Shown: positions 3,809-55,573 of the stretch, piece by piece | How the letters are laid out: each line of letters starts with the position of its first letter | Numbering within the stretch: position 1 is the stretch's first letter | DNA from: Blautia sp. | GTDB taxonomy: Bacteria > Bacillota > Clostridia > Lachnospirales > Lachnospiraceae | Length of the DNA: 64,000 nucleotides | Direction of reading: 5' to 3' | Assembly: GCA_034118545.1 (NCBI GenBank) | Contig: JAXFBD010000069.1 | Location: forward strand, 9,948 to 73,947 | Translations under genes and position numbers: made by a program | Notes under the pieces: generated by a model | Told to the model about the DNA's origin: nothing | What the model saw: the letters and a program-made list of their open reading frames with translations, nothing else | Databases searched by the model: none

Positions 3809-6110
<2,302 letters not shown>

Positions 6111-6598: not shown

Positions 6599-7588
6599 TT
6601 ATTTCTTTGCAATATATTTACGGATATCCAGTGCAATAGCAACTACGATAACCACGCCCTGTGCGATGTACTGATAGTTTGTGTTAACGCCCAGGAACTG
6701 AAGTGCGGATTTCAGAAGCTCGAATACGGCAACACCGATGATAACACCGGAAACTTTACCGATACCACCGTTAACGGAAACACCACCGATGGTACATGCT
6801 GCAATCGCTTCCAGCTCGTAGCCCTGTCCCATGTTAACACTGGTACCACCGGATTTTCCACCAAGAAGGAAACCGGCAATTGCATACATACAAGCTGCTG
6901 TTACATAAATGATAATTTTGGTTTTCTTTACATTTACACCGGAAACCTCTGCTGCCACTTCGTTTCCACCGATGGCATACATGTATTTTCCATGACGGGT
7001 GTAATTATATACAAACCAGAAAATAGCTGCTGCAATTACAAGATAAATGAACAATACCGGAATTCCGGCAATCTTGCCCTGTGTTACAGTGATATAATCT
7101 GCACGGTAACCACCGATCGGAACAGAGTTTGTAATAACCAGTGCAATACCATAAATAATGAGCTGCATACCAAGGGTACCGATGAATGCCGGTACGTTAA
7201 GGTAAGAAATTACGATACCGTTGATCAGACCGAAAATTGCACAGATTACCATTACAATAATCAGTACAATAAATACATTAAGAACCGGGAAGTCCGGCCA
7301 TACTTTACCGGGTGCATCCGGTTTCTGAAGCATGATACCTGCCAGACATGCACTTAAACCAACCGCACGACCTGCGGAAAGGTCCGTACCCTTTGTGATC
7401 AGACAGCCGCTGACACCAAGTGCGATGATAACACGGGGTGCGGCATTGATTGCCAGGTTCATGATGTTTCTCATACTTCTGAATGTAGGAACTGTGATGC
7501 TTACGTATGCTACCAGAATCAGAAGCAGAACAATAATTCCGTTATTAAGCAGAAGCTCTTTAATATCTATTTTCTTTGATTTATCCAT
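6599..7588 (-). CDS. mglC: Galactose/methylgalactoside-type ABC permease
   Basis: TKGTDLSAGR, GKYMYAIGGNEVAAEVSGV, YELEAIAACTIGGVS. Confidence 0.9.
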   Translation of the reverse strand: MDKSKKIDIKELLLNNGIIVLLLILVAYVSITVPTFRSMRNIMNLAINAAPRVIIALGVSGCLITKGTDLSAGRAVGLSACLAGIMLQKPDAPGKVWPDFPVLNVFIVLIIVMVICAIFGLINGIVISYLNVPAFIGTLGMQLIIYGIALVITNSVPIGGYRADYITVTQGKIAGIPVLFIYLVIAAAIFWFVYNYTRHGKYMYAIGGNEVAAEVSGVNVKKTKIIIYVTAACMYAIAGFLLGGKSGGTSVNMGQGYELEAIAACTIGGVSVNGGIGKVSGVIIGVAVFELLKSALQFLGVNTNYQYIAQGVVIVVAIALDIRKYIAKK

Positions 7589-41138: not shown

Positions 41139-42335
41139 TCAGTTGTTGCATTTCAGAATGTCTTCATAAAATTCATCCATTTCCTTCTGTGTCTTAAATA
41201 CAGCCACATACATCTGATTTCCCATTGCACCGGACAGCGCATCCGGGATCCTTTCGATCATCTTCATGCAGCTTCCGTATTTTTCCATAATATCACTATG
41301 GCTCATTACAAAATCCTTACCGTCTCTGCGGCCTGCAAATGCACAGTATGCGTTTTTGCCCACAGGCATGGTGGAACGGTCAAAAGCGATCATATCCGCC
41401 CAGATCTTATATACATCTGTACTGTGTGCAAAATCCATCATATCCGGAGTAAATCCGCCGCAGGGGCGCATGTTTACTTCCAGTGCCACAATATCACCTT
41501 TCTTACCCAGCCCCTCCTGATCTGCCAGAAGGCGGAAAAACTCAAAGTGCACGAAACGGCTCTTTACGCCGAAGCTTTTTACTGTTGCACGACCTGCTTT
41601 TCTTGTATCCTCAGGAAGCTTTTTCAGAATATAATAAATGGAATTATCCTCATTATTTACAATATCCATAATGGACATCGGTGTCACATTTCCCGTCTCG
41701 AACATGGGCTCCCCATGAGAATCAATGATCGCATCATAGGAATTCACCTCACCATTTACATACTCTTCCATGATGTACTGAGTATTTGGCCATTTATATC
41801 CGAAAAACTCCTTCATCTGCTCATCGTTTTCCAGACGGAAGGTGTGGGAAGCACCCACTCCGTTATCCGGCTTTGCAACCACAGGATAACCCACCTGTCT
41901 TGTAAACTCCAGACATCCCTCAAGATTATCCACCATATGATAACGTGCCACCGGGATTCCGGCTTTTATGTAGAATTCCTTCATTTTTGATTTATATTTG
42001 ATCCTTGGCATATCAGATACCTGAAAACCGCTCTGGATATTAAAATCTGTACGCAGCTTGGCATCTCTTTCCAGCCAGTATTCATTGTTGGATTCCAGCC
42101 AGTCAATACGGCCATGCTTATGAATAAAAAAGGCAACTGCACGGTATACCTCATCTTCATTTTCCAGGCTGCTGACCTTATAATATTCATTCAGACTTTC
42201 TTTCAGATCCTCTGAAAGCTCATCATAAGGCTGATCACCGATTCCAAGTACATTCAGACCGTTTTTCTTTAATTCCCGGCAAAACATCCAGTAATTTGTA
42301 GGAAAATTGGGGGAAATAAATACAAAATTTTTCAT
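41139..42335 (-). CDS. Stand-alone ATP-grasp enzyme of unknown function
   Basis: KSKMK, VAKPDNGVGA, MEEYVNG, EVNMRPCGG. Confidence 0.85.
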   Translation of the reverse strand: MKNFVFISPNFPTNYWMFCRELKKNGLNVLGIGDQPYDELSEDLKESLNEYYKVSSLENEDEVYRAVAFFIHKHGRIDWLESNNEYWLERDAKLRTDFNIQSGFQVSDMPRIKYKSKMKEFYIKAGIPVARYHMVDNLEGCLEFTRQVGYPVVAKPDNGVGASHTFRLENDEQMKEFFGYKWPNTQYIMEEYVNGEVNSYDAIIDSHGEPMFETGNVTPMSIMDIVNNEDNSIYYILKKLPEDTRKAGRATVKSFGVKSRFVHFEFFRLLADQEGLGKKGDIVALEVNMRPCGGFTPDMMDFAHSTDVYKIWADMIAFDRSTMPVGKNAYCAFAGRRDGKDFVMSHSDIMEKYGSCMKMIERIPDALSGAMGNQMYVAVFKTQKEMDEFYEDILKCNN

Positions 42336-42365
42336 AAAAATCTCCTTCTCTTTTCTCTTTTGCTG

Positions 42366-43127
42366 TTATTCTTTTTCATCCAGTAAATAGGGAACAAAAT
42401 ATTCTACCTGCTTATACCACCAGCACCAGTCATGCGAACAGTCATATCCCCAGAGATCAACCCAGACAGATATTCCCTTTTCCTGAAAAATCTCACCCAG
42501 ACGTCTGGTGGATTCCGGCAGCTCCCATGATCCCTGTCCGGCACAGATCACTGCTTTTTTCTTATTAAACAGATCGATATACGGATGATCCTCAGGCATG
42601 TTTTCCATATAATGAATGGGGGAATTTGTATACACAAGATCGTCCATATAGCTGCCAAAGCCATATTCCGCCGTGTAGATTCCGCTCAGTGCCAGAAGTC
42701 TGTCAAAAAGATCCGGTCGGCGCAGATACAGATTCGCTGCATGAGTCGCGCCCAGGCTGCATCCAAATACCATAATTCCCGGATAGCCTTCCCAGCCGTT
42801 TCTCTGATTTACCATTCCCCGCATAAAAGGAACCATCTCATCGGTGATATAGCGTATCCACTGCTCATACCGCTCAATTCTCCACCGGGGATCTCCCTGG
42901 CTGTCTGACCAGGTCTCTTTGTCTATAGTATCAATGGAAAATACCATAACCTTACCGGCATCGATCCAGGGTGCCCATACATCCGTCATATGGAAGTTCT
43001 CAAAATCAAAAAACCGTCCATCCTGACAGGGAATAAAAAGCACCGGCCGTCCGGCATGTCCGTAAACCTTACATTCCATCTCCCGGTTCAATGCCGGACT
43101 GTAGTCCTTAAAATACTGTGTTTCCAT
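42366..43127 (-). CDS. Alpha/beta-hydrolase esterase-family protein
   Basis: GCSLG nucleophile elbow, HDW. Confidence 0.85.
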   Translation of the reverse strand: METQYFKDYSPALNREMECKVYGHAGRPVLFIPCQDGRFFDFENFHMTDVWAPWIDAGKVMVFSIDTIDKETWSDSQGDPRWRIERYEQWIRYITDEMVPFMRGMVNQRNGWEGYPGIMVFGCSLGATHAANLYLRRPDLFDRLLALSGIYTAEYGFGSYMDDLVYTNSPIHYMENMPEDHPYIDLFNKKKAVICAGQGSWELPESTRRLGEIFQEKGISVWVDLWGYDCSHDWCWWYKQVEYFVPYLLDEKE

Positions 43128-43140
43128 ATGACTCCTCCTT

Positions 43141-43917
43141 TCAGGGCTGATATGTCAGTGTGTGTATAACAAAGGGAAGCTGTTTCTCCCAGCTTGCCTC
43201 GCAGTGATTTCCAAAAGGAACGATCCTGCTGGTTACAAAAATCTTTCTCTGAAGTAGCATAAAAGTCATCTTTTCAAACTGAGACTGCATCACCTTATGG
43301 AAGTTGATTTCCCTGGAACCGTAATCCATATAAATGGTGGTATCCGTATCAATTTTCGCCGTTTTAACCAGCCTCTCCAGCTTCTGGGGATTTGTCCAGA
43401 TGGACGGGGAAAGCGCCGCTGCTTTGGAAAATACATCGTTATATTCCAAAACCGCATACAGGCTCATGAGACCTCCCATGGAGCTTCCTGCAATATAGGT
43501 ATTTGCCCGATCCGGCAGTGTCCTGTAGTTTCTGTCAATCTCTTCTTTGAAGGTATGGATCAGCCACTCCATGGTTTCCTTTCCCTTACCTTCAATTTTA
43601 CCGAATTTGGGATCTGAAAAATTATAGGGAGAATACTCCTTCAATCTGCCGTTATCCGCATCATGGCTGCATTCCACCGCCGCAATAATCATCTGCGTAT
43701 TGGTATAATCCATATATTCCTTCATTCCCCAGCATTTACCATAGGTAGCATCGGAATCGAAAAAAACATTATGTCCGTCAAACATATATAATACCGGATA
43801 TCGTTTATCCTTTTCATATTCATAAGATTCCGGCAGGTAAATATAAGCCGTACGTTCTTGTGGCCCTGCCTGTGCCGGAAACATAACGCTCCATCTTTTT
43901 ACCATTGTTGTCTCCAT
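43141..43917 (-). CDS. Alpha/beta-hydrolase esterase-family protein
   Basis: YPVLYMFDGHN, GSSMGG, HCEASW. Confidence 0.85.
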   Translation of the reverse strand: METTMVKRWSVMFPAQAGPQERTAYIYLPESYEYEKDKRYPVLYMFDGHNVFFDSDATYGKCWGMKEYMDYTNTQMIIAAVECSHDADNGRLKEYSPYNFSDPKFGKIEGKGKETMEWLIHTFKEEIDRNYRTLPDRANTYIAGSSMGGLMSLYAVLEYNDVFSKAAALSPSIWTNPQKLERLVKTAKIDTDTTIYMDYGSREINFHKVMQSQFEKMTFMLLQRKIFVTSRIVPFGNHCEASWEKQLPFVIHTLTYQP

Positions 43918-43946
43918 TTCTGTAAGTCAGTAATTTTTACTTTCCG

Positions 43947-43975
43947 ATTATACTCCAGTTTTTTTTGAAAAACAA
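43947..43975 (-). promoter_or_regulatory. Putative sigmaA promoter of the esterase-esterase-ATP-grasp unit
   Basis: TTGTTT-N17-TATAAT with an A8 run in the spacer. Confidence 0.5.
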
Positions 43976-44030
43976 TACGGCATTTTTCCGGTTTATTCCA
44001 GAAAAAATAAAGAAAAACCGCTGTTTTTCA

Positions 44031-44624
44031 TCATTTATCCATTATCTTGCAAAACACCACTGCCGTTGCCGTACTCACCAGGGTCGCCGCTATCCCCGGC
44101 CCTACAATGGCCGACGGATTCACGCTTCCGTACTGTGCCCGGTAGGCAATAATATTCACAGGAATAAGCTGCAGAGAAGACACATTAATAATCAGGAAAG
44201 TACACATGGCATTGCTTGCCGCATCTGTCTCTTGTTTTCCCCGTTTTTCCCGGCGAATTCTGTCCAGTTCTTTAAATGCCATCAGGCCGGAAGATGTGCT
44301 GGCCCAGCTCAATCCCAGGATATTAGCCAGAAAATTCAGAGAAATATACCGGGCTGCTTTAGAATATGGCTCTAAATCAGGAAATAAAAAGCATAATAAA
44401 GGACGCAGCTTATTTGAAAGCTGCGCCACAAGCCCTGTTGTTTCTGCTATTTTCATCATCCCTGTCCACATTGCAGTGACACCTGCCACAGACAGACAAA
44501 GTGAAACAGCTTCCTTCGGGGATGCCACCACTGCCTCTGTCACTGCCTGCAGATTTCCTGTAAGGGCTGCATAAACAATTCCAGTTAAAATCATTCCACT
44601 CCACAGATAAGTAATCATCGCCAT
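44031..44624 (-). CDS. spmA: Spore maturation protein A
   Basis: MWTGMMKIAE, ANILGL, FLIINVSSLQLIP, YGSVNP. Confidence 0.88.
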   Translation of the reverse strand: MAMITYLWSGMILTGIVYAALTGNLQAVTEAVVASPKEAVSLCLSVAGVTAMWTGMMKIAETTGLVAQLSNKLRPLLCFLFPDLEPYSKAARYISLNFLANILGLSWASTSSGLMAFKELDRIRREKRGKQETDAASNAMCTFLIINVSSLQLIPVNIIAYRAQYGSVNPSAIVGPGIAATLVSTATAVVFCKIMDK

Positions 44625-44652: not shown

Positions 44653-46095
44653 TTATGCCATGAGGTTCTGTTTATTACAGGTCTTCCCTGTTCTCTGAAA
44701 AATCCTGGTTCCGCACCGGGCTGCCCAGGTCTTCCCGTCCCTTATGTAAAATTCCACCGTACTGATCCGTTTCTTATGATCTTCTCTGCTTACCGCAGCA
44801 AAAACAGTCTTCTGACAGTAAAGAAAGTCCACCGGCTCGCCGTTAAAGCTTCCTGTGAGTTTCCCGTCTGCAAGCTCCACAATACAGTGCTGGGGAAGAC
44901 CCTCTCTGGACAGGTAATCGCCGCATAAAATCTCCGGCATGGAAAAAACTCCTCCGGAAGGCCATGCCCAGTAATGCTGTGTTTCGTAAGGAAGACCCAG
45001 CACGTAATTATAACAGGCCCATTTAAATTCATCCATATTCTGCTCGCCCTCATTACACAAAACCGCCACAGAATATCCTCCCTCTATCAGAGCCCCGCAT
45101 GAAGAAACTCCCCGAAGTGCTCCGGAATGATCACAGACAACTCTTCCATTTATCAGTTTTTTCTCCAGTCCCAGACAGTAATACGGCTCTGTGGAGGCGG
45201 GATATCCCCTGCCGATCAGAAGCTCCACAGCTTCCTTTGGGATTACCTGCTGCCCCTCCCAGACTCCTCCGTCACAAAGTGTTTTATAATATTTTGACAT
45301 GTCTGCGGAGGTGGATTTTACGCAGGCACAGCCTCTGTACGGCGGCAGCACCGACCAGTTTTCATCCTGCCAGAAGCCGCCGTCTTCCTCTCTCACAAAA
45401 ATACTGCTGATGTTTCCTTTTGCAAGCTTTATAGCCTCGGAACCATCCAGATCCTGTACTGTCCGGGTCATTCCCAGAGGCCGGAAAATTCTCTTTTCAA
45501 GAAACCTCTCCAGAGGCATTTGTGCCGCCTGATCCACCACATAGGACAGGATAGCATACCCCTCGTTACAGTAGCTCATATACTCTCCCGGCATACCCAG
45601 AGGTTCGTAATTTCCCTGAGAAATATAATCCACGATCTGACCGATTTCATCCATCTTATTGGGTGCGGTTTCCCTCATATGGCGATACCAGTAGGATTCC
45701 TTTTCCACACTGTTCATGGCAATGGACCACTCCATTGGTTCCATGGGCGGTATTCCTGCCCGATGCATGGCCAGTGTACGAAGGGTCACACACTCATCGG
45801 GAATTCCCGGAATATGGAAATCCGGAAAATATTTCACAACCGGATCCTCCAGATCAAGGCTTCCCTCCGTATGAAGAATGGCACAGGCAAGAGCTGTCAT
45901 GGATTTGCTCATGGAAGCCACTCCGAAAACTGTGTTTTCATCTGCAGGCAGGCTATTTTTTATATCCCTGAATCCATATCCCTTCTGAAACAGAATTCCT
46001 TCCGGTCCGCGGATGGTAACTGCCATTCCCGGATAACCCCTTTTCTCAAAAAGTCCTGTCAGATATACATCAAAAGCTTCTATATCTCTCTTCAC
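44653..46095 (-). CDS. Serine hydrolase, beta-lactamase/S12 D-peptidase family
   Basis: SMSK (SxxK), YCN (YxN), HSG; extra C-terminal domain; no signal peptide. Confidence 0.85.
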   Translation of the reverse strand: MKRDIEAFDVYLTGLFEKRGYPGMAVTIRGPEGILFQKGYGFRDIKNSLPADENTVFGVASMSKSMTALACAILHTEGSLDLEDPVVKYFPDFHIPGIPDECVTLRTLAMHRAGIPPMEPMEWSIAMNSVEKESYWYRHMRETAPNKMDEIGQIVDYISQGNYEPLGMPGEYMSYCNEGYAILSYVVDQAAQMPLERFLEKRIFRPLGMTRTVQDLDGSEAIKLAKGNISSIFVREEDGGFWQDENWSVLPPYRGCACVKSTSADMSKYYKTLCDGGVWEGQQVIPKEAVELLIGRGYPASTEPYYCLGLEKKLINGRVVCDHSGALRGVSSCGALIEGGYSVAVLCNEGEQNMDEFKWACYNYVLGLPYETQHYWAWPSGGVFSMPEILCGDYLSREGLPQHCIVELADGKLTGSFNGEPVDFLYCQKTVFAAVSREDHKKRISTVEFYIRDGKTWAARCGTRIFQRTGKTCNKQNLMA

Positions 46096-46103
46096 TTTTT
46101 CGC

Positions 46104-46898
46104 TCAGCCTCCCATAAAATTCAGTGCCACCCGCACATCATAATAATTTTTTGCTCCATACCGTACCGTATGGCTGTCCACCATTTCCGCCCCGGGAAAC
46201 CATCCTGCATTACGGGCATCAATATGAGATGCGAACTGAATTTCCAGTATATATTCCTCCGGCATTTTCCGCAGAGGAGGAAGCTCTGTCAGCGCTTTTG
46301 CCGCAGCAGCTTTCATCTGTTCTGCTGCATCTTCCGGATGAAGACTGACAGTCCCGCCCCCAATTCCTTCCTTTACTGCAAATGTATGAATTCCCGGATA
46401 TTCTGCCTCAGCATATTTACAGATTTCTCTGTCTCCCGAAAGAAAAACCGACGGAATCCCACTGGCATCTGCCCAGTGAGAATTCAAAGTAAATTCCGAT
46501 GCAAGCCGTCCATTAAGCCAGATACGACTGAAACGGGAGCTGCTTATGGTATGAGCCAGAGGGCTTTTGTCAGAGCCTGCCGGTGCATGATATCCCACAT
46601 ACATCACCCCGTCATACCCCTCCCCGAGACCTGCCATCATAGATGCAGGACTGGCCATCCATCCCCTGATCAGAGTAACTCCTCTCGGAAGAAGACGGGC
46701 ATCAATATTACAGGCATCTCCGTGTCCGTCCCGGACAGTCACACAATGTCCTGCTTCCAGAGCAGCTTCGCAGACAGCCGCTGTTTCCAGCGTCATCTGC
46801 CTGCAGGCCTGCTCATATCCTTTTCCGCCGGTTCTTGTTTCTTCCCATCGGGTAACACCGGCAACCCCTTCAATATCCGCACTGATAAATAACTTCAT
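46104..46898 (-). CDS. dppA: M55 family D-aminopeptidase
   Basis: ISADIEG, DGHG, GYHA, LAHT, LSGD. Confidence 0.9.
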   Translation of the reverse strand: MKLFISADIEGVAGVTRWEETRTGGKGYEQACRQMTLETAAVCEAALEAGHCVTVRDGHGDACNIDARLLPRGVTLIRGWMASPASMMAGLGEGYDGVMYVGYHAPAGSDKSPLAHTISSSRFSRIWLNGRLASEFTLNSHWADASGIPSVFLSGDREICKYAEAEYPGIHTFAVKEGIGGGTVSLHPEDAAEQMKAAAAKALTELPPLRKMPEEYILEIQFASHIDARNAGWFPGAEMVDSHTVRYGAKNYYDVRVALNFMGG

Positions 46899-46937
46899 TT
46901 TTTATTTTCCCCTGTGTTTATTTTATATTTTCAGCAG

Positions 46938-47969
46938 TTACGGCAGGTATTCCCGCACACCATGAACCGTATTTTTACGTATCCCTGTCATTCCCTCACT
47001 GTGATATAAAGAACTGATCACCGCTTCCTCCACAGCCTCTGCAGCAGCCTCAAAAACAGGATCCATGGCATCATCCAGAATCTCACTTCTGGTAATAATT
47101 TTCTTTTTGCTGTAATGGGGGATTTTATCCGCCGTGGAAAAGGCAATGGCAATATCTCCGCTTCCATTTCCCAGATAAGACCCGGTTCTTCCAAGCCCCA
47201 CTACACTTCTTCTCGCCACGCGCCGAAGCTGCCTGTCATTCATGGGAATATCCGTTGCAAGGAGAATGATTACGGAACCTTTTTCCTTACCGCCAATCCG
47301 TTTTTCCTCTGAAACGTCCACAACCTTTCCGTCAATGCGCAGATTCCCCAAAACACCGAAATTAGACATCACAAGTGCTCCGATGGTATACCTCTGCTCA
47401 TCGACCAGAACCATTCTGGAAGAAGATCCAATACCGCCCTTCAGCCCCATACAGATCATTCCCCGGCCGGATCCCACAGCCCCTTCTTCAAAATCCTCAC
47501 TGCAGTTTTCCAATGCCTGAAAGACATGTTTTTCCGTCACATGAAGTCCCCGGATATCGTTCAGGCTTCCGTCATTGCATTCTGTCACCACACAGTTTAC
47601 CGTTCCTGTCAGCGTGCCGATATCTTTGTTTCTTTCCAGCATATATTTTACAAGGGCTGTCAGAGCCGTCCCCACGCTTAAGGTATTTGTCATCACTATG
47701 GGTGTTTCCAGCGTTCCCAGTTCATCGATCTGGATAAGGCCTGTGCTTTTGCCAAATCCATTGATCACCGCTGTACCGGCCGGCAGCTTCTCCCGAAATG
47801 TGTTTCCCGGGTGGGGAATTACTGCCGTCACTCCTGTATGGATATTTTTCTCTTCATCATCTATGGTAACATGCCCCACCTTTATGCCTGCCACATCTGT
47901 AATCTTGTTTCTTTTTCCCCGCTCATATTTATTATTCAGCAGTCCTGCTGCTTCCAGAGGTAATCCCAT
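46938..47969 (-). CDS. P1/S58 family aminopeptidase (DmpA-like Ntn hydrolase)
   Basis: ITDVAGIKVGH, NGFGKSTG, ECNDG, KGGIGSSSR, NGSGD autocleavage site. Confidence 0.9.
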   Translation of the reverse strand: MGLPLEAAGLLNNKYERGKRNKITDVAGIKVGHVTIDDEEKNIHTGVTAVIPHPGNTFREKLPAGTAVINGFGKSTGLIQIDELGTLETPIVMTNTLSVGTALTALVKYMLERNKDIGTLTGTVNCVVTECNDGSLNDIRGLHVTEKHVFQALENCSEDFEEGAVGSGRGMICMGLKGGIGSSSRMVLVDEQRYTIGALVMSNFGVLGNLRIDGKVVDVSEEKRIGGKEKGSVIILLATDIPMNDRQLRRVARRSVVGLGRTGSYLGNGSGDIAIAFSTADKIPHYSKKKIITRSEILDDAMDPVFEAAAEAVEEAVISSLYHSEGMTGIRKNTVHGVREYLP

Positions 47970-48013
47970 TTTTTTGCTCCCTTATGTCATATTCTTCGTT
48001 GCTGCGAAGGTTT

Positions 48014-49624
48014 TTATCTCACTCGGAGATAAACTGTTTTTCCTCCCACTACAGTTCTTTCCACCGTTACATCCTTAATACGTTCCGGCTCCAGTTCAAA
48101 AATATCATCCGAAAGCACCGCAAAATCAGCCAGAAAACCTTCTCGTATCATACCTTTTTTATTTTCCTCCAGGGAAAGCGCAGCACCGCCTTTTGTATAA
48201 ATACTCACGGCTTCCCATACGCTCAGCTTTTCCCCCGGATGCCATCCGCCGGCAGGATTTCCGTCTTCATCTGTTCTGGTCACTGCACAGTAAATCCCCC
48301 ACAGCGGATTCATGGTTTCCACCGGACTGTCAGAACCGCCCCCGAGAAGGATTCCGGTATCATGCATGGTTTTCCAGCAATATCCCAGATTCTCTCTCTC
48401 TCCCAGACGGGGTGCCGTAAGAGACATATCTGATGCTGTAAAAGGAGGCTGAATATCTGCAGCGATATGATATTCCGCCATCATGTCAAAAAGCTTTTTG
48501 TCCCCGAACTGGCAGTGGACAATCCTGTGACGCAGCTCTTTCGGCTCCTCTTCATATGCTTTTCTGAATGCATGGACACACTGCTCCACCGCGCCGTCTC
48601 CTATGGCATGGCAGGCCACCTGCATTCCTGCTTTGTGTGCTATGGATACCACCTCATCCAGCTCCTCCTGGGTATACACCGCAATCCCTCTGTTTCCCGG
48701 AGCATCCGCATAATCTTCTCTCATATAGGCCGATCTTGCACCCAGTGACCCGTCTGTGATAAGCTTAATGTTCCCTATCTTGAAAAAGTCTGTGCCATCG
48801 CCTGTACGCAGCCCTCTTTTCAGAAATTCTCTCAGAACCGGCGGACGGGGAGACTGAACCTCTTCATTTATACGAAGCGTCAGCGTTCCCTCCTGCTCAA
48901 GCTGACTATAGGCTTCCATGACTGTATCCAGAGGCGCGCCTTCCAGATCATCCGTCTGAACAGAAGTAATGCCAAAGGAATTTGCCGCTCCGGCAGCCGC
49001 CATAATGGCACGCCTGCATTCTGCCGTTTCCGGTGCGGGAATCCTGCGTTTAAATGCATCCAGTGCAGACTCCCATAGAACCCCGGTTGGATTTCCTTCT
49101 TCATCCAGCTCCACATTTCCACCGGGCATTTTTGTGTTTTTGTCAAAGTCTGCCAGCTTCATGGCAAGAGTATTCGCCGCTCCCACATGGCCGCACACAC
49201 GCTCGATCATAATTGGATGCTCTGTGGAAATCCGATCAAGCAGCGCTCCATCCGGCAGTTTTGGATCCGCAAATACGTTGTGATCATATCCGCCTCCCAC
49301 GATCCACGTTCCTGCAGGAATCTTTTTCTCAGCGATATACCTCCGTCCTTTTTCCACAATCTCATCCAATGACCGTACATTTCTCAGCTCCAGCCTCTCA
49401 TATCCCAGCCCGGTAAGCAGCAGATGACAGTGAGAATCATTAAATCCCGGTACCATGCATGCACCCTTCAGATCGATTTTTCCACAGTTTTCTTCTGCCA
49501 GAGAAAGTATATCCACATCATTCCCCACAGCTTCAATAAGACCGTCCTTTACTGCCACTGCAGAAACCGTCTCTTCACCTGCCATTGTATAAATTTTCCC
49601 GTTATAAAATATCAGATTCGCCAT
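48014..49624 (-). CDS. YtcJ/NfdA-like amidohydrolase (Amidohydro_3)
   Basis: PGFNDSHCH, DGSLGARSA, HAIGD, RIVHCQ, GSDSPV. Confidence 0.9.
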   Translation of the reverse strand: MANLIFYNGKIYTMAGEETVSAVAVKDGLIEAVGNDVDILSLAEENCGKIDLKGACMVPGFNDSHCHLLLTGLGYERLELRNVRSLDEIVEKGRRYIAEKKIPAGTWIVGGGYDHNVFADPKLPDGALLDRISTEHPIMIERVCGHVGAANTLAMKLADFDKNTKMPGGNVELDEEGNPTGVLWESALDAFKRRIPAPETAECRRAIMAAAGAANSFGITSVQTDDLEGAPLDTVMEAYSQLEQEGTLTLRINEEVQSPRPPVLREFLKRGLRTGDGTDFFKIGNIKLITDGSLGARSAYMREDYADAPGNRGIAVYTQEELDEVVSIAHKAGMQVACHAIGDGAVEQCVHAFRKAYEEEPKELRHRIVHCQFGDKKLFDMMAEYHIAADIQPPFTASDMSLTAPRLGERENLGYCWKTMHDTGILLGGGSDSPVETMNPLWGIYCAVTRTDEDGNPAGGWHPGEKLSVWEAVSIYTKGGAALSLEENKKGMIREGFLADFAVLSDDIFELEPERIKDVTVERTVVGGKTVYLRVR

Positions 49625-49694
49625 TTGTTTTTTCCTTTCGTAAACAACACTAATCAGATTATAGAATATTTACGGACTTTTTTCCAGATAAAAA

Positions 49695-49751
49695 GGGAGC
49701 TGCCGCATAATTCAAACTGCAAAATGCGTTTGATTATACGGCAGCCCTTTT
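49695..49751. repeat. Palindromic element / terminator-like stem after the peptide-binding protein gene
   Basis: GCTGCCGCATAATTCAAAC...GTTTGATTATACGGCAGC, followed by U5 on the minus strand. Confidence 0.7.
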
Positions 49752-49780
49752 ATATTATTTTTATGGAGATTACCCTCAGA

Positions 49781-51382
49781 TTACTCTGCGGTACGGATAT
49801 TCATGAAGCACATATTCCAGATCCAGGATGCATTCATTGTATAGCCTGTATATGCTTTGTTCATTGTAGCCTGTCTGTTGGGGTACATAACAAATACGTA
49901 TGGTGTATCCTGATTTACGATATCCATTACCTCAAACAGCTTCTGATTACGTTCTTCATCATCAAGGCTTGCAGCCTGCTCCTTCAGAAGCTTATCCACT
50001 TCTTCATTTGTGTAAACTGCTGCGTTGGAGCCGCCTTCACCTGCGTTATAGCTTGCCAGAAGAGGTTCGATATTACCGGAAACATCAGGATAATCTGCTT
50101 CCCAGCCGGCAAGGATCATATCGTAATCTCTGTTTCCGTCTTCGTCAAAATATTCTCCAAACTGATATGCTGTATGCTCGTCAGAAGAAAGCTTAACAAG
50201 TTCAACATTAATATTCAGCTCTTTTAATGCTTCCTGAATTGCAAGTCCCAGAGAATAGCTTAAGGAGCTTTCTGTGATCAGCATGCTGCAGTCAAAGCCG
50301 TCTGCATACTCAGATGCTGCCATGTATTCTTTCGCCTTGTCCAGATCGTAAGAAGTGTAATCGGCATTTGCAACGTAATCTTCCCACTCGTCCGGATTAA
50401 TTGTATACAGAACAGAGCTGTTGGGCAGGCATCCGCCTTCCTTTCCTGCATCCTTAATGATGTTCTCCTGCAGAGAGGCCAGATCAATGGCACTTGCAAT
50501 TGCCTTACGTACATTTACATCATCAAACGGTGCACGCTGTGTATTAAATGCCAGGAACTGGATACCCATGGTCTCCACATCCTGAACATCAAGATTGTCG
50601 CTCTTCTTCAGAGTCTCAACCATATCAGAAGGTGTATTCGGTGTAAAATCAACCTCACCGGACATCAGTGCGCTGGCGCGTGTGGTATCCTCAGGAATAA
50701 TCTTAAATACCAGCTTGTCCATCTCAATTTCCTGATCCTTATCCCAGTAATTCTCATTTTTTACCAGAACGATTTCCTGACCACTGGTCCAGCTGTCAAA
50801 TACGTATGGACCGGTGCCCATCAGACCGCTTTCTGCTGTGCCGAAAGTATCTTCGTTTGCTTCATAGAACTCTTTGCTGATGATATGACCTGCAGTTGTT
50901 GCAAAGATGTATTTCCACGTTGCAGAAGGCTCTTTTAAGTGAACAGTCAGCTCCCAGTCACCTGTCTGCTCAAAAGAATCCACGTTGTCAAATGTCCACA
51001 GAAGGTAGGATGCTGTCTCCGGATTTTTAATTCTTTCCAGAGAAAATAACACGTCATCCATAGTCATTGGTGTTCCGTCAGAAAATGTTACATCATCACG
51101 AATCTGATAAACATAAGTAACATCATCTGTTGCTTCCCAGCTGCTTGCAAGCTGTGGTTCCAGCTCATTGTTTTCATTCACAGTCAGCAGTCCCTGCGTA
51201 ATCTGATTTACAACCGGGTTTGTTGTAAAATCATAGGCAAATGCAGGATCCAGAGCTACGATATCACTGTTCAGTGCAATCGTAAATGTGTTGTCATCTT
51301 CCGCAGCAAAAGTAATCTGTGCAGGACCGATCATGGAAACTGCTACTGCTGCTGAAAGAACGCCGGCAAGTAATTTTTTCAT
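49781..51382 (-). CDS. Peptide ABC substrate-binding protein (SBP family 5)
   Basis: LDPAFAYD, IRDDVTFSDGTP, GTGPY, NVRKAIASAID, WEADYPD; signal peptide without lipobox. Confidence 0.92.
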   Translation of the reverse strand: MKKLLAGVLSAAVAVSMIGPAQITFAAEDDNTFTIALNSDIVALDPAFAYDFTTNPVVNQITQGLLTVNENNELEPQLASSWEATDDVTYVYQIRDDVTFSDGTPMTMDDVLFSLERIKNPETASYLLWTFDNVDSFEQTGDWELTVHLKEPSATWKYIFATTAGHIISKEFYEANEDTFGTAESGLMGTGPYVFDSWTSGQEIVLVKNENYWDKDQEIEMDKLVFKIIPEDTTRASALMSGEVDFTPNTPSDMVETLKKSDNLDVQDVETMGIQFLAFNTQRAPFDDVNVRKAIASAIDLASLQENIIKDAGKEGGCLPNSSVLYTINPDEWEDYVANADYTSYDLDKAKEYMAASEYADGFDCSMLITESSLSYSLGLAIQEALKELNINVELVKLSSDEHTAYQFGEYFDEDGNRDYDMILAGWEADYPDVSGNIEPLLASYNAGEGGSNAAVYTNEEVDKLLKEQAASLDDEERNQKLFEVMDIVNQDTPYVFVMYPNRQATMNKAYTGYTMNASWIWNMCFMNIRTAE

Positions 51383-51457
51383 TTTAATTTCCTCCTTTTT
51401 TTATCTGATAACCTTCCGCAAAGACTTTTTTTATATCCAAAAGTCCCATCGGCGGTC

Positions 51458-52423
51458 TCATACATGGTAACATGCCACCTTGTGCCCGTTTCCTATATCT
51501 TTAAGTTCCGGAGCTTTTTCCCGGCACTGCTGCGTACAGTAACGGCATCGGGATGCAAAGCTGCAGCCCCGGGGCAGATCAATGGCATTGGGGATGTCTC
51601 CCTCCAGGATGATGCGCTCTTTTGCATCCTCCGGATCCGCCTTGGGAATGGCAGACATCAGTGCCTGTGTATAGGGGTGACAGATATTGGAAAAGAGCTC
51701 CTTTACCGGTGCCATTTCCACAATTCTTCCGAGATACATAACCGCCACGTTATCACAGATATGTTCCACCACTGTCATTTCATGAGAAATGAACATCATG
51801 GTCATTTTCAGCTTTTTACGCAGATCTGTGATCAGATTCAGTATCTGTGCCTGTACAGAAACATCCAGCGCAGATACCGGCTCATCTGCCACGATAAAAC
51901 CAGGCTCCAGGATCAGTGCCCTTGCAATGGCAAGTCTCTGAAGCTGACCGCCGGAAAGCTCTCCCGGGCTCCTGTGCAGCATATCAAGTGGCAGGCTGAT
52001 ATACTCCATGAGCTGCTCTACCTTTTCATGAAGTGCCCTTTCATCCATACCGTAAACCCGTCCCACCTCGTAAAGAGCCGAACCGATTTTCTGTTTGGGA
52101 TTAAAGGATGAATACGGATTCTGAAATATCATCTGCATGTTTTTCCGGTAGGGCTTCAGCTCTCTGCGGTTCATCCGGGAAATATCCGTTCCGTCAAAAA
52201 GAATCTCTCCTTCTGTTATGGGAAACAATCTGAGCACTGACCTGCCCAGAGTAGATTTTCCGCATCCGCTTTCTCCCACAACGCCCATGATCTCACCTTC
52301 ACAGATCTCAAAGGAGACACCATCCAGCGCTTTCAGCGTTTTTCCTCCGGAGGGATAATACTTCTTTAAATTCTTTACTTCTATGATCTTATGATCTTTA
52401 TTGATCAGATTTTCGTTTATCAT
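51458..52423 (-). CDS. Peptide ABC ATPase (OppF/DppF-like)
   Basis: GESGCGKST, LSGGQLQR, DEPVSALD, HPYT, C-terminal Cys cluster. Confidence 0.93.
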   Translation of the reverse strand: MINENLINKDHKIIEVKNLKKYYPSGGKTLKALDGVSFEICEGEIMGVVGESGCGKSTLGRSVLRLFPITEGEILFDGTDISRMNRRELKPYRKNMQMIFQNPYSSFNPKQKIGSALYEVGRVYGMDERALHEKVEQLMEYISLPLDMLHRSPGELSGGQLQRLAIARALILEPGFIVADEPVSALDVSVQAQILNLITDLRKKLKMTMMFISHEMTVVEHICDNVAVMYLGRIVEMAPVKELFSNICHPYTQALMSAIPKADPEDAKERIILEGDIPNAIDLPRGCSFASRCRYCTQQCREKAPELKDIGNGHKVACYHV

Positions 52424-52440
52424 CAGAAAGCCTCCTCCGA

Positions 52441-53400
52441 TTACTGAATATGGTGACAGGCTGCCACATGACCGTCTCCAAGATTCCTTTCCTCCGGACG
52501 GATCTCACACTCTTTTGTTGCATAAGGACACCTTGGAAGATATGCACATGCCTTATTTTCTGCAAAAAGCTCCGGCGGACTTCCCGGAATGGTAGGAAGA
52601 TACTCCACATTCATACCGGTTTTCGGAATACTGTTTATCAGTGCTTTACTGTACGGATGCGCCGGATGGCGGAACACCGTTTTCGTATCACATGTCTCCA
52701 CCACACGCCCTGCATACATAACAGATACGCGGTCGCAGATTTCTGCCACAATACCAAAGTTATGTGTGATCAGCAAAACAGACATGCCCATATCCGCTGA
52801 TAATCTCTTCAAAAGCTCCAGAATCTGTGCCTGAATGGTAACATCAAGAGCTGTTGTGGGTTCGTCTGCAATAAGCAGTTCCGGGCTGCACGCAATGGCA
52901 ATGGCAATCATAACACGCTGCTGAAGACCGCCGCTCAGCTCAAAAGGATACTGTCCGAAACGTTTTTCAGGCGGATTGATTCCCACCCTTTCCAGCAGCT
53001 TTAATGTCTTCTTTTTCGCCTCCGGTTTACTGCATTTTTCATGAAACCGATATGTTTCAGCAATCTGTTCTCCTATGGTCATAAGAGGATTTAAGGATGT
53101 CATGGGATCCTGAAAAATCATGGAAATCCGATTTCCCCTGATGGCCTGCATCTTCTTTTTTGGAAGCTTCAGGATATCCTCCCCCTTGAAAATTATCTCT
53201 CCGCTCATACGGCTTCTCTGCTCATTATGAAGGCGCATAACAGACTTTGAAGTCATACTTTTTCCGGATCCGCTCTCACCCACAAGACCATGAATTTCTC
53301 CCGGACGAATTTCCAGATTTACCCCGCCCAGAGCATAAACGATTCCGCGGGGTGTCATCAGATCTACCTTCAGATCTTTGATTTCCAGTAAATTTTCCAT
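52441..53400 (-). CDS. Peptide ABC ATPase (OppD/DppD-like)
   Basis: GESGSGKS, LSGGLQQR, DEPTTALD. Confidence 0.93.
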   Translation of the reverse strand: MENLLEIKDLKVDLMTPRGIVYALGGVNLEIRPGEIHGLVGESGSGKSMTSKSVMRLHNEQRSRMSGEIIFKGEDILKLPKKKMQAIRGNRISMIFQDPMTSLNPLMTIGEQIAETYRFHEKCSKPEAKKKTLKLLERVGINPPEKRFGQYPFELSGGLQQRVMIAIAIACSPELLIADEPTTALDVTIQAQILELLKRLSADMGMSVLLITHNFGIVAEICDRVSVMYAGRVVETCDTKTVFRHPAHPYSKALINSIPKTGMNVEYLPTIPGSPPELFAENKACAYLPRCPYATKECEIRPEERNLGDGHVAACHHIQ

Positions 53401-54320
53401 TACTCTGCCTCCCTGCGTTTCATTCGTTTTTCCACCTTTTTAAAGGATGGAAGCTTTCGCTGAACCGGTTCAAAATACTGGTGAAGACCGTCGCTGAAAA
53501 TATTCAGAGACACAACAGTCAGCACGATTGCAGCACCGGGTGCGAGAGCCAGGTACGGGTTCATCAGCAGGAAATTTCTTCCCTCATCCAGCATGGCTCC
53601 CCAGTCTGCTGTGGGCGGCTGGACACCCAGTCCAAGGAAGCTTAAGGATGCCAGATCCAGAATGGCGTATGCCAGGTCAAGAGTAATCTGTACCGTAATA
53701 GAGGAAACACAGTTTGGAAGAATGTGCCGGAACATGATCCTTGCATCCGAATAACCAATGGAAGTAGCCGCCTCCACATAGGTTTTATTTTTTTCTACCA
53801 GTGTAAGGGAACGCACCAGCCGGGTAAGCATCGGTACATAAACAATACCCAAAGCCAGCACCGCATTGAGCATTCCGCGGCCAAAGCCTGCCACAAATAC
53901 AAATGCCAGAAGCAGTGACGGGAAGGACAGTACAATATCACAGATACGTCCGATGATCATATCTGCCACACCGCCGTAATATCCGGAAATCAGCCCAAGC
54001 GGAACTCCTGCAATTACGGAAAAAGCAACTACTCCCAGCGCAGAAATCAGTGTGGTCCGTCCGCCGTAAAACAGCCTTGTAAGTAAATCTCTTCCCACCT
54101 TATCGGCTCCCAGAAGATGTTGTGCAGAGGGCAGGGCAAGAGAATCTGCCAGGTTCTGCTCTGTGGGAGAATAGGGAGAAATTATGGGTGCAAAAATGCA
54201 GCAAAGAATCAGGATTGCCAGTATGATCATGGCTATTACCATGGATACCGTAAAAACAGTTCCCTCTTTTCTTTTGCGCCGGAAAAGAGGCTTATGCCAG
54301 AAAAGCTCTCTATATTTCAT
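53400..54320 (-). CDS. Peptide ABC permease (OppC/DppC-like)
   Basis: HLLGADKVGRD, YVEAATSIG, LSFLGLG; start moved to the ATG at 54320 behind AGAGGAG. Confidence 0.92.
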   Translation of the reverse strand: MKYRELFWHKPLFRRKRKEGTVFTVSMVIAMIILAILILCCIFAPIISPYSPTEQNLADSLALPSAQHLLGADKVGRDLLTRLFYGGRTTLISALGVVAFSVIAGVPLGLISGYYGGVADMIIGRICDIVLSFPSLLLAFVFVAGFGRGMLNAVLALGIVYVPMLTRLVRSLTLVEKNKTYVEAATSIGYSDARIMFRHILPNCVSSITVQITLDLAYAILDLASLSFLGLGVQPPTADWGAMLDEGRNFLLMNPYLALAPGAAIVLTVVSLNIFSDGLHQYFEPVQRKLPSFKKVEKRMKRREAE

Positions 54321-54333
54321 TTTTTCTCCTCCT

Positions 54334-55272
54334 CTAATCCAGTCTGATTCGCGGATCAATCAGTGCATAAACAATATCTACCAGCAGGTTGATCACCAGA
54401 AACAGTGCCACCATCATCAGCGTAATTCCCTGAACAACCGGGTAATCCGAAGATTTTATAGCACCGATCAGAATGTCACCGACACCGCCCAGCGCAAATA
54501 CATTTTCCACAAGGACCGCTCCCACTATCATGGAACCGATCTGAATACTTGCCACCGTAACAACAGGGATAATGGCATTTTTCAGACAATGCTTCAGAAC
54601 TACCCTGTGATAGGGAATTCCTTTTGCAATGGCAGTGGTGGTATAATTGGAATTCAGCTGCTCGATCATATTGCTCCGTGTGATTCTGGAGATCAGAGCC
54701 ACCATATTCAACCCCAGTGCCAGCGCCGGAAGAAACAAGTAATAGATGTTTTCAACAATGGATTTCCCGCTTCCGAAAGTGGGGAAAAGATGCAGATTAA
54801 GTGCAAATACCAGCATCAGCAGAATTGCCGTCAAAAATACCGGCGAGGCAACAAATATCAGAGTGAGCACCGACAGAATCCTGTCTGTGGCCTGATTCAT
54901 TTTTACTGCACTGATGATACCTACAGGAACAGCGATCAGCAGCGCCAGTATGGCACTCATAATAACAAGCTGAAGGGTAGTCGGAAGACGTCCCGCGATC
55001 AGAGAATTAACAGACTGTTTATACTCAAAACTGTCTCCCAGATCTCCTCTCAATGCATTTGTGATCCAGATAATATACTGTTCCGGCAGAGATTTATCAA
55101 GATGATATTTCTCTTCCAGAGACTGTCTTGTTTCTTCACTGATTCTCTTTCCCTTGGTCATGGAAGCCACAGGGTCCGAAGGTGTAATGCGGATCATGCA
55201 GAAAATCAGGATTGATGTAGCCAACAAGATTGGTATCAGCTGAAGGATCCGCTTTACGATAAATTTGCCCAT
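54334..55272 (-). CDS. Peptide ABC permease (OppB/DppB-like)
   Basis: GDLGDS, YTTTAIAKG, VLVENVF, DPRIR. Confidence 0.92.
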   Translation of the reverse strand: MGKFIVKRILQLIPILLATSILIFCMIRITPSDPVASMTKGKRISEETRQSLEEKYHLDKSLPEQYIIWITNALRGDLGDSFEYKQSVNSLIAGRLPTTLQLVIMSAILALLIAVPVGIISAVKMNQATDRILSVLTLIFVASPVFLTAILLMLVFALNLHLFPTFGSGKSIVENIYYLFLPALALGLNMVALISRITRSNMIEQLNSNYTTTAIAKGIPYHRVVLKHCLKNAIIPVVTVASIQIGSMIVGAVLVENVFALGGVGDILIGAIKSSDYPVVQGITLMMVALFLVINLLVDIVYALIDPRIRLD

Positions 55273-55299
55273 TTTCCATTCTCCTTTCCCGCTTTAAAC

Positions 55300-55340
55300 A
55301 AAAAAAGTACAATGGGAACACCTTTGTTCGTCATTGTACT
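55300..55340 (-). terminator. Leader intrinsic terminator (riboswitch expression platform)
   Basis: GUACAAUG...CAUUGUAC followed by U7, about 27 nt upstream of the first permease ATG. Confidence 0.85.
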
Positions 55341-55371
55341 GTAATTTATCACTATTATTTCATTTTATTAT

Positions 55372-55536
55372 GTAATAGCTCCACCACTGTACAGTGAGAG
55401 TTCATGACCTGTTCGCCCATAAACCAACTAAACGCCCGGGACCTGCGTCTGTTTCGGCATGAAACCCTTTCCTTCTCCTTCTCCGGCCCGCCCGGCCTCC
55501 GGAAATGTACTCTTGTTTCATGCGCCTCTATTTACC
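55372..55536 (-). ncRNA. Lysine riboswitch (L-box) fold, variant at the junction core
   Basis: AGAGGCGC, AAGAGUA/GAAAGG loop E, GCCGAA, UUGG, GAACA pentaloop; P1 AAUAG/CUAUU; P2 GCAUGAAAC/GUUUCAUGC; kissing loops CCGGG/CCCGG. Confidence 0.9.
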
Positions 55537-55543
55537 TTTGTTC

Positions 55544-55573
55544 ATTATACGCTTACATATAAAAACTTGTCAA
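55544..55573 (-). promoter_or_regulatory. sigmaA promoter of the riboswitch leader
   Basis: TTGACA-N18-TATAAT; predicted +1 near 55537, just before P1. Confidence 0.85.

Follow-up and report, generated by a model that had tools for sequence, protein, structure and literature searches.

The DNA analyzed here, called the window, is a 64,000-nucleotide (nt) stretch of a Blautia sp. genome (GenBank assembly GCA_034118545.1, contig JAXFBD010000069.1, positions 9,948 to 73,947). It contains a lysine riboswitch heading the genes of a peptide-type ATP-binding cassette (ABC) importer, followed by a gene for a YtcJ-like amidohydrolase and by three further hydrolase genes of the S58, M55, and S12 peptidase families. 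An earlier reading made from the letters alone (the sequence-only reading) had treated the importer and all four hydrolases as one lysine-salvage system. We find that the conserved unit across relatives is the importer plus YtcJ, that S58-M55-S12 is a cassette present only in the lineage of the window, and that the riboswitch is a rare variant of the lysine aptamer. The features of the locus, in the direction of transcription, are as follows.

55544–55573, minus strand: sigma-70–type promoter of the riboswitch, TTGACA-18-TATAAT, 12 of 12 consensus positions, directly upstream of the aptamer
55368–55538, minus strand: lysine riboswitch aptamer of a rare subclass, RF00168, 95.5 bits, full length
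55299–55340, minus strand: intrinsic terminator of the riboswitch expression platform, hairpin of −14.1 kcal/mol, then U7
54334–55272, minus strand: oppB/dppB-type permease, BPD_transp_1 and BPD_transp_1_N
53400–54359, minus strand: oppC/dppC-type permease, start codon uncertain, OppC_N and BPD_transp_1
52441–53400, minus strand: oppD-type ATPase, ABC_tran and oligo_HPY
51458–52423, minus strand: oppF-type ATPase, ABC_tran and oligo_HPY
49781–51382, minus strand: family-5 substrate-binding protein of DppA/GsiB/NikA size with a signal-like N terminus, SBP_bac_5, 291 bits
49691–49751, minus strand: strong terminator-like hairpin between the binding-protein gene and YtcJ, −32.8 kcal/mol, z = −7.3
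49658–49686, minus strand: promoter-like site before YtcJ, TGGAAA-17-TATAAT, 10 of 12 matches, by consensus match only
48014–49624, minus strand: YtcJ-like binuclear metal amidohydrolase, Amidohydro_3, 349 bits
46938–47969, minus strand: S58 (DmpA/BapA-type) aminopeptidase-like gene, Peptidase_S58, 388 bits
46104–46898, minus strand: M55 (DppA-type) D-aminopeptidase-like gene, Peptidase_M55, 276 bits
44653–46095, minus strand: S12 serine hydrolase with a C-terminal extension of ~120 amino acids, Beta-lactamase family, 149 bits
44031–44624, minus strand: spmA-like Gate-domain gene, the tenth co-oriented gene, weak Gate match, 28 nt after S12

The nine genes from oppB to S12 are co-oriented at the positions where the sequence-only reading had placed them, and profile matches confirmed the families it had named. 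The gaps between the hydrolase genes, given there as 8 to 44 nt, measure 44 nt (YtcJ-S58), 39 nt (S58-M55), and 8 nt (M55-S12). Signal peptides had been described as absent from the four hydrolases, and no hydrophobic leader is indeed seen at their N termini, as judged by eye. The listed start codon of oppC is a TTG that creates a 26-nt overlap with oppB; an alternative ATG 13 codons downstream would leave a 13-nt gap.

A lysine riboswitch with an altered junction nucleotide

The riboswitch lies just outside the range 44653–55272 that the sequence-only reading had assigned to the cluster, and its placement before the importer as a lysine-type element was correct. It matches RF00168 over the full length of the model (positions 1 to 182) with 95.5 bits against a gathering threshold of 30 (E = 5e-24), and the five-helix architecture of the lysine riboswitch is complete. 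The nucleotides reported to contact lysine are kept, namely, AGAGGCGC, GCCGAA, and the G-U pair at the base of helix P4 (the equivalents of G40-C110, G111, A112, and G144-U170; Bacillus subtilis positions from PMC3384330). Because the 5′ strand of P5 (CACUGUAC) appears able to pair with the 5′ arm of the terminator (GUACAAUG), the element is read as a putative transcriptional OFF switch. Equivalent terminators are present at three of the comparison loci, which are referred to below by L numbers (L007, L125, and L136).

The aptamer departs from the canonical form at the single nucleotide that joins helices P4 and P5. This junction nucleotide is a C in the window and in L007 and L125, the two other copies linked to an importer of this type, as opposed to a G in all 26 canonical copies from 41 related genomes that served as a control. 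The closing pair of P3 is also changed, being A-U rather than G-C in the junction-C copies, and a G occupies that position in 23 of the 26 others. None of the 26 canonical copies is followed by a symporter or by the importer seen in the window. By count, and with the positions given in PMC3384330, the junction nucleotide lies immediately 3′ of G144-U170 (B. subtilis numbering), the G-U pair by which the lysine carboxylate is read. Mutations at this pair and at G40-C110 redirect the lysC leader toward carboxyl-modified analogs (PMC3384330).

Metagenome sequences were scanned with the pattern AGAGGYGC...GCCGAAA...ACTCTCA, which selects for the junction C, and the counts that follow refer to the 80 loci among the matches listed. 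At least 54 of them are genuine lysine riboswitches by profile search. The first downstream gene encodes a sodium:alanine-family symporter (PF01235) at 40 or more of these 54, an NhaC-type protein at two, and something else at one. Wherever enough sequence follows the symporter (29 of 29 cases), the next gene is a YtcJ (PF07969) whose product is 38% identical to that of the window. When the 54 metagenome copies and the three importer-linked copies were clustered at 85% identity, at least 13 lineages were obtained: 3 with ABC-YtcJ, 7 with the symporter (Na_Ala_symp), 1 with NhaC, and 2 unresolved. At least 10 of the 13 clusters thus head a transporter (ABC importer or sodium:alanine-family symporter), and YtcJ is found in each of the seven transporter clusters with enough sequence, including all four symporter lineages that are long enough.

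The symporter-linked aptamers, one of which was examined and has its own terminator, are only 54 to 63% identical to that of the window; because of this divergence, the shared junction C is not a matter of recent common descent. The symporter version is present in many contigs of human-gut metagenomes. A metagenome scan with the exact P5 sequence of the window gave no match, and a pattern scan of 401 genomes of the class returned the window’s own copy alone. The junction-C subclass is rare among species representatives.

The importer, YtcJ, and the three further hydrolases

With two BPD_transp_1 permeases, two ATPases with an oligo_HPY tail, and a family-5 binding protein, the importer has the complete make-up of a Dpp/Opp-type system. 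None of its proteins reached an NCBIfam equivalog cutoff, so that none is a named orthologue of Dpp, Opp, Nik, or Gsi. The binding protein has its signal-like N terminus without a lipobox cysteine, and its best match among solved structures, 5U4O, is uncharacterized. Its GWEAD motif aligns with GWTGD of Escherichia coli DppA, and the equivalent of Asp408 in this motif is kept in the window and in all 11 orthologues; the region around Arg355 gave no alignment. In E. coli DppA, Asp408 holds the free α-amino group of the ligand, and the sodium:alanine symporter family carries small amino acids. Because the binding protein keeps the Asp408 equivalent and the alternative transporter of the subclass belongs to this symporter family, we favor a ligand that would be small, amino-acid-like or dipeptide-like, with a free α-amine.

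The YtcJ protein matches Amidohydro_3 (PF07969, COG1574) with 349 bits over profile positions 3 to 472 of 472, and the ligands of the binuclear site (H65, H67, K287, H339, H370, and D432) are invariant in 14 sequences. Its surroundings were compared in eleven contexts, among them L007–L010 and those of the orthologues 54 to 81% identical in L123, L125, L126/127, and L128–L131, and the importer is adjacent or close to YtcJ in nine of them. In L007, L008, L009, and L010 (binding protein 63 to 80% identical), the order is oppBCDF, binding protein, then YtcJ, with S58, M55, and S12 in none of the four. The importer is followed directly by YtcJ (53 to 63% identical) in L125, L126/127, and L129 as well as in L007–L010; YtcJ comes first in L131, and two genes separate it from the importer in L130. 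The two contexts without an importer are L128, with a YtcJ-S58-M55 trio, and L123, from a close relative whose glycogen phosphorylase is 96% identical. The corresponding chromosomal site of L123 has a thiamine pyrophosphate (TPP) riboswitch, a thiamine operon, YtcJ (81% identical), and spmA, with neither the importer nor S58-M55-S12.

Three importer-YtcJ copies, those of the window, L007, and L125, stand behind a lysine riboswitch. The sequence-only reading had suggested looking for riboswitch and cluster together in other genomes; the riboswitch, importer, and YtcJ do occur together in L007 and L125, but S58, M55, and S12 are absent there.

Three observations were made on individual copies. 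In L123 (4028–11629), YtcJ stands at the end of the thiamine operon, its start 15 nt downstream of thiC; this position may stem from a recombination accident, or it may hint at a deformylase-type function in salvaging thiamine. The riboswitch-less importer-YtcJ copy L126 has a leader of ~200 nt (3876–4236) with a consensus-like promoter, AU-rich repeats of the form (A/G)UAG(A/G)UAUUU, and a terminator before oppB; it has no Rfam match and may be an unknown regulatory leader. In L130, a Clostridiales-1 RNA (RF01699, 110 bits, 7218–7380) lies just after the binding-protein gene, ahead of the two unrelated genes and YtcJ.

The S58 protein matches a Pyrococcus protein of solved structure (PDB 2DRH) with E = 1.5e-106 and ~55% identity by eye, including the GNGSGD block. 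The M55 protein scores 276 bits with Pfam Peptidase_M55 but 135 with the NCBIfam DppA equivalog, whose cutoff is 430; it is a family member and at most a candidate equivalent of B. subtilis DppA. In the S12 protein, the motifs S61-M-S-K64, Y175-C-N, and H323-S-G are in place. Among PDB entries, it is most similar to the N-domain of 2QMI (Pab87), a match that covers residues 8 to 213 only. Assignment as a CubicO protease of the Pab87 type was rejected because of this limited match and because the YAEAF/L and C-terminal ERY motifs are both absent.

S58, M55, and S12 occur in no other riboswitch-bearing copy (L007 and L125), nor in the closest relative, L123. The YtcJ-S58-M55 order recurs once elsewhere, in the importer-less L128, where the proteins are 60, 57, and 51% identical to those of the window. 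The unit of importer plus four hydrolases drawn by the sequence-only reading is thus not conserved; YtcJ is the only conserved partner of the importer, and we regard the other three as accessory trimmers of nonstandard peptides, a lineage-specific addition. M55, S12, S58, or M42 genes also adjoin more distant relatives of the importer whose binding proteins are 41 to 50% identical (e.g., L011–L013, L012, L024, and L026), so an association with unusual peptidases is a general trait of the importer clade.

Between the binding-protein gene and YtcJ, the sequence-only reading had noted a terminator-like stem and a lone TATAAT, and had cautioned that the hydrolases might be a separate unit. The stem is of ~25 base pairs and −32.8 kcal/mol (z = −7.3; none of 200 shuffled sequences folded as well), with an A-run before it and a U-run after it. 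The TATAAT is present directly after the hairpin and has a weak −35 element, TGGAAA, at 17-nt spacing. Because a strong hairpin and a promoter-like site precede YtcJ, the hydrolases of this genome are most likely transcribed separately or, at best, by leaky read-through, and riboswitch control of the four hydrolases in the window is doubtful. The arrangement differs between copies: In L125, the spacer between the binding-protein gene and YtcJ is unstructured and only 53 nt long, and the two genes would therefore be co-transcribed; L007 has a weaker hairpin (−19.6 kcal/mol) abutting the YtcJ ribosome-binding site.

Related systems and a proposed lysine-salvage module

Among the lysine riboswitches examined in the same genus, the targets are an NhaC-type transporter, dapA, or a polar-amino-acid ABC system; in other families of the order, asd mostly follows. 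In two genomes of the genus (G008 and G017), a canonical, junction-G lysine riboswitch heads a different Dpp-type importer with the gene order binding protein-B-C-D-F (L120, G008:C151, 8342–14118; L121, G017). Its binding protein is 24% identical to that of the window, and no hydrolase follows. Because this importer differs and lacks a hydrolase, peptide-type importers have come under lysine control more than once. The window copy is the only lysine riboswitch detected in its assembly. A second one may be unassembled, because an NhaC-type gene, 78% identical to the usual lysine-riboswitch target of the genus, is cut by the end of contig C143 (4696–5338, L284). The notion that a single lysine riboswitch makes the organism dependent on the importer system was rejected, given this truncated gene and the presence of dapA and lysA-like matches.

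Low-scoring lysine-riboswitch matches with a divergent 3′ part were also seen before small genes in L111 (G040, 74 bits) and L112 (G044, 57 bits). By their N-terminal sequence, these genes seem to resemble 3-aminobutyryl-CoA ammonia-lyase; if this label is right, the elements are probably ON-type switches for lysine fermentation.

The known L-box regulon (lysC, asd, dapA, and lysA; lysP/gabP, lysW of the NhaC type, yvsH, and lysXY) shares with the window the aptamer family, the terminator-based OFF logic, and the effect of raising lysine supply when lysine is low. It differs in that the surveyed targets include no Dpp/Opp-type importer or YtcJ (PMC5584792 and PMC11477304), the transporter targets in one survey being only lysP/gabP, lysW, yvsH, and lysXY (PMC5584792), and in that the window aptamer has a C where P4 meets P5, a position otherwise held by an invariant G. 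In the searchable literature, we found no link between lysine riboswitches and peptide ABC transporters or YtcJ. The nearest published layout is Clostridioides difficile CD3100-3099, where a lysine riboswitch precedes a YfcC-type transporter and an M20D amidohydrolase of predicted function (PMC11477304). There, too, the order of riboswitch, transporter, and amidohydrolase implies the release of lysine from an imported conjugate, but the transporter is YfcC rather than a Dpp-type ABC importer or sodium:alanine symporter, and the enzyme is an M20D peptidase rather than a TIM-barrel binuclear Amidohydro_3 protein.

As to the enzyme itself, N-substituted formamide deformylase is one YtcJ-like hydrolase that acts on an N-acyl amide. 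Others of known activity do likewise (PMC10699109; bioRxiv 10.64898/2026.04.05.716592): Metal-dependent bile salt hydrolases belong to the same Pfam family as YtcJ (bioRxiv 10.64898/2026.04.05.716592), and ε-lysine acylases have been classed as YtcJ-like (PMC10699109). The latter include Streptomyces SmELA and SgELA (EC 3.5.1.17), which are YtcJ-like by this literature placement and whose conversion of N-ε-acyl-L-lysine to lysine fits the operon logic; unlike the window protein, they are secreted by actinomycetes and have no known riboswitch or transporter link. For the extended cluster, Pyrococcus abyssi seems a good analogy, as its S12 peptidase Pab87 adjoins a D-aminoacylase and a dipeptide ABC transporter, and digestion of bacterial wall debris containing D-amino acids was proposed (PMC2651629). 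The Pab87 neighborhood and B. subtilis dppA-E share with the window a Dpp-type importer beside D-stereospecific peptidases (M55 and S12) and an Amidohydro_3-type enzyme, and both have been proposed to scavenge D-amino-acid peptides. Neither is under lysine control, however, and in the window M55 is not the first gene, S12 lacks the Pab87-specific motifs, and the peptidases stand outside the conserved core.

Our results are on balance probably best explained by a lysine-repressed salvage module that takes up a small conjugate of lysine (or diaminopimelate) whose α-amino group is free and cleaves it with YtcJ. When lysine is low, transcription would read through into the importer genes, and a small lysine- or diaminopimelate-containing conjugate, for which N-ε-acyl-lysine, an isopeptide, or a short peptide are candidates, would be imported. 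The cytoplasmic YtcJ would then hydrolyze the amide bond of the conjugate to yield free lysine. When lysine is high, the aptamer would fold, the terminator would form, and import would stop. S58, M55, and S12, whose families were founded on D- or β-aminopeptidases, would have been added behind YtcJ and would probably trim nonstandard residues of the same or related imported peptides; in the window, transcription of these three genes and of YtcJ would start chiefly at a separate promoter, read-through from the riboswitch unit being leaky at most.

Diaminopimelate-containing fragments are possible substrates because diaminopimelate is one step from lysine. N-ε-acyl or isopeptide lysine is the candidate that fits best, because known YtcJ-like enzymes hydrolyze N-acyl amides, and the acyl-lysine or isopeptide idea of the sequence-only reading stays alive through the placement of ε-lysine acylases in this family (PMC10699109). 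It is possible, though we hold it as doubtful, that the junction-C riboswitches form a distinct functional subclass for transporter-plus-YtcJ operons, either tuned differently or recognizing a modified lysine, and that they mark a so far unrecognized pathway of YtcJ-type lysine release from an imported conjugate (N-ε-acyl, formyl, or γ-glutamyl lysine and homocitrulline being candidates).

Several points weigh against the salvage module. In the window itself, the strong terminator stands between the importer and YtcJ, and most importer-YtcJ copies (L008–L010, L126, and L129–L131) have no lysine riboswitch. In L123, the YtcJ that is 81% identical to that of the window is found directly behind a TPP-riboswitch thiamine operon, without an importer. 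Lysine riboswitches are lacking within 4.5 kilobases of the YtcJ genes of 14 genomes of the order, genes that share 42 to 67% identity with the symporter-linked type; YtcJ therefore does not imply a riboswitch. The substrate of the importer and YtcJ is a matter of candidates only, and the solved-structure matches of YtcJ, profile search included, are confined to the uncharacterized 3ICJ and 3IGH. The genome can probably make lysine, because it has a dapA match above the cutoff and a lysA-like match just below it. Finally, the changed junction nucleotide may leave room for a ligand other than lysine.

The importer could instead be a general di- or oligopeptide importer for nitrogen nutrition, placed under lysine control only since peptides are a main lysine source, with YtcJ and the three peptidases as broad housekeeping enzymes without lysine specificity. 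Its standard Dpp/Opp-type make-up would fit this, as would the canonical riboswitch before a different, hydrolase-less Dpp-type importer in G008 and G017 and the lack of a riboswitch in most importer-YtcJ copies. We nevertheless consider it rather unlikely: The tight, repeated linkage of importer and YtcJ, together with the riboswitch-transporter-YtcJ order in operons with a non-peptide symporter family, argues for one defined substrate, and the known YtcJ-like activities are on N-acyl amides, not ordinary peptides (PMC10699109; bioRxiv 10.64898/2026.04.05.716592). At the other extreme, YtcJ-S58-M55-S12-spmA might be an independent unit, a mere neighbor with no tie to the importer or to lysine. 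The terminator and promoter-like site before YtcJ point in this direction, and so do the L123 YtcJ and the L128 YtcJ-S58-M55 trio, both without an importer. Given the adjacency or near-adjacency of importer and YtcJ in 9 of 11 contexts and the link of the riboswitch subclass to YtcJ across two transporter families, this would be very surprising for YtcJ; for S58, M55, and S12 alone, it is much more plausible.

Two further explanations were weighed. In one, which follows the sequence-only reading, all nine genes would form a single lysine-controlled system for Lys-type or diaminopimelate-type stem peptides, in which D-aminopeptidase-like enzymes remove D-Ala and YtcJ cuts the bond between γ-D-Glu and Lys or diaminopimelate. 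The founding activities of the S58, M55, and S12 families, the M55, S12, or S58 neighbors of distant importer relatives (L011–L013, L012, L024, and L026), the closeness of diaminopimelate to lysine, and the wall-debris proposal for the Pab87 neighborhood all lend it some weight. It seems unlikely to us, given that neither the closest relative nor any other riboswitch-bearing copy has the three hydrolases, that a strong terminator stands ahead of the hydrolases, and that none of the 10 co-oriented genes from the importer to the spmA-like gene matches the LD-carboxypeptidase, NlpC/P60 endopeptidase, or epimerase of known recycling sets; symporter-linked YtcJ operons, moreover, are hard to square with tri- to pentapeptide substrates.

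In the other, the junction-C subclass would sense a related metabolite (e.g., a carboxyl- or ε-modified lysine) instead of lysine, and the operon would serve the metabolism of that compound. In all 13 clusters among the matches listed, the otherwise invariant nucleotide beside the carboxylate-reading G-U pair is changed, along with the P3 closing pair, and the subclass is tied to an unusual gene set. Yet all reported lysine-contact nucleotides are kept (PMC3384330), one of the clusters stands before an NhaC-type gene, which is a classical lysine-riboswitch target, and an OFF switch on an uptake-and-hydrolysis operon is most sensible if the product, lysine, is the ligand. We therefore give a changed ligand little credence.

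The lysine-salvage proposal of the sequence-only reading is thus partly supported. It appears right in spirit, with lysine-controlled uptake and unusual-amide hydrolysis: A putative OFF riboswitch heads a peptide-type importer, the importer is functionally tied to an N-acyl-amide-type hydrolase (YtcJ) through a pairing kept in other genomes, and salvage is the simplest reading. It is wrong in scope, with one conserved hydrolase rather than four. The new element, which the sequence-only reading had not made out, is the link of a rare lysine-aptamer variant to YtcJ operons across two transporter families. It adds a peptide-type ABC importer and a YtcJ amidohydrolase as a new target class to the well-studied lysine riboswitch regulon. 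It also gives a large enzyme family, hardly any of whose functions have been assigned, a concrete lead: the liberation of lysine from a conjugate. A rare core-nucleotide variant tied to a specific gene set is also the kind of signal that earlier led to altered-ligand riboswitches. Since many contigs of human-gut metagenomes carry the symporter version, the pathway could be important to the way gut bacteria obtain lysine from modified or cross-linked dietary and microbial protein. The parts of the system are small and easily tested in vitro.

Neighboring genes

The spmA-like gene that follows S12 is 81% identical to the gene directly after YtcJ in L123 and may be the end of the hydrolase transcription unit. 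Between the spmA-like gene and an spmB-like gene (41139–44624 of the window) lies an esterase-esterase-ATP-grasp cassette, which is also found in L123 (11604–20568), its proteins being 87, 88, and 94% identical. L123 has, in addition, a bacteriocin-type insert after spmA, with a Nif11 peptide, a C39 peptidase ABC exporter, and a DpnII-like gene.

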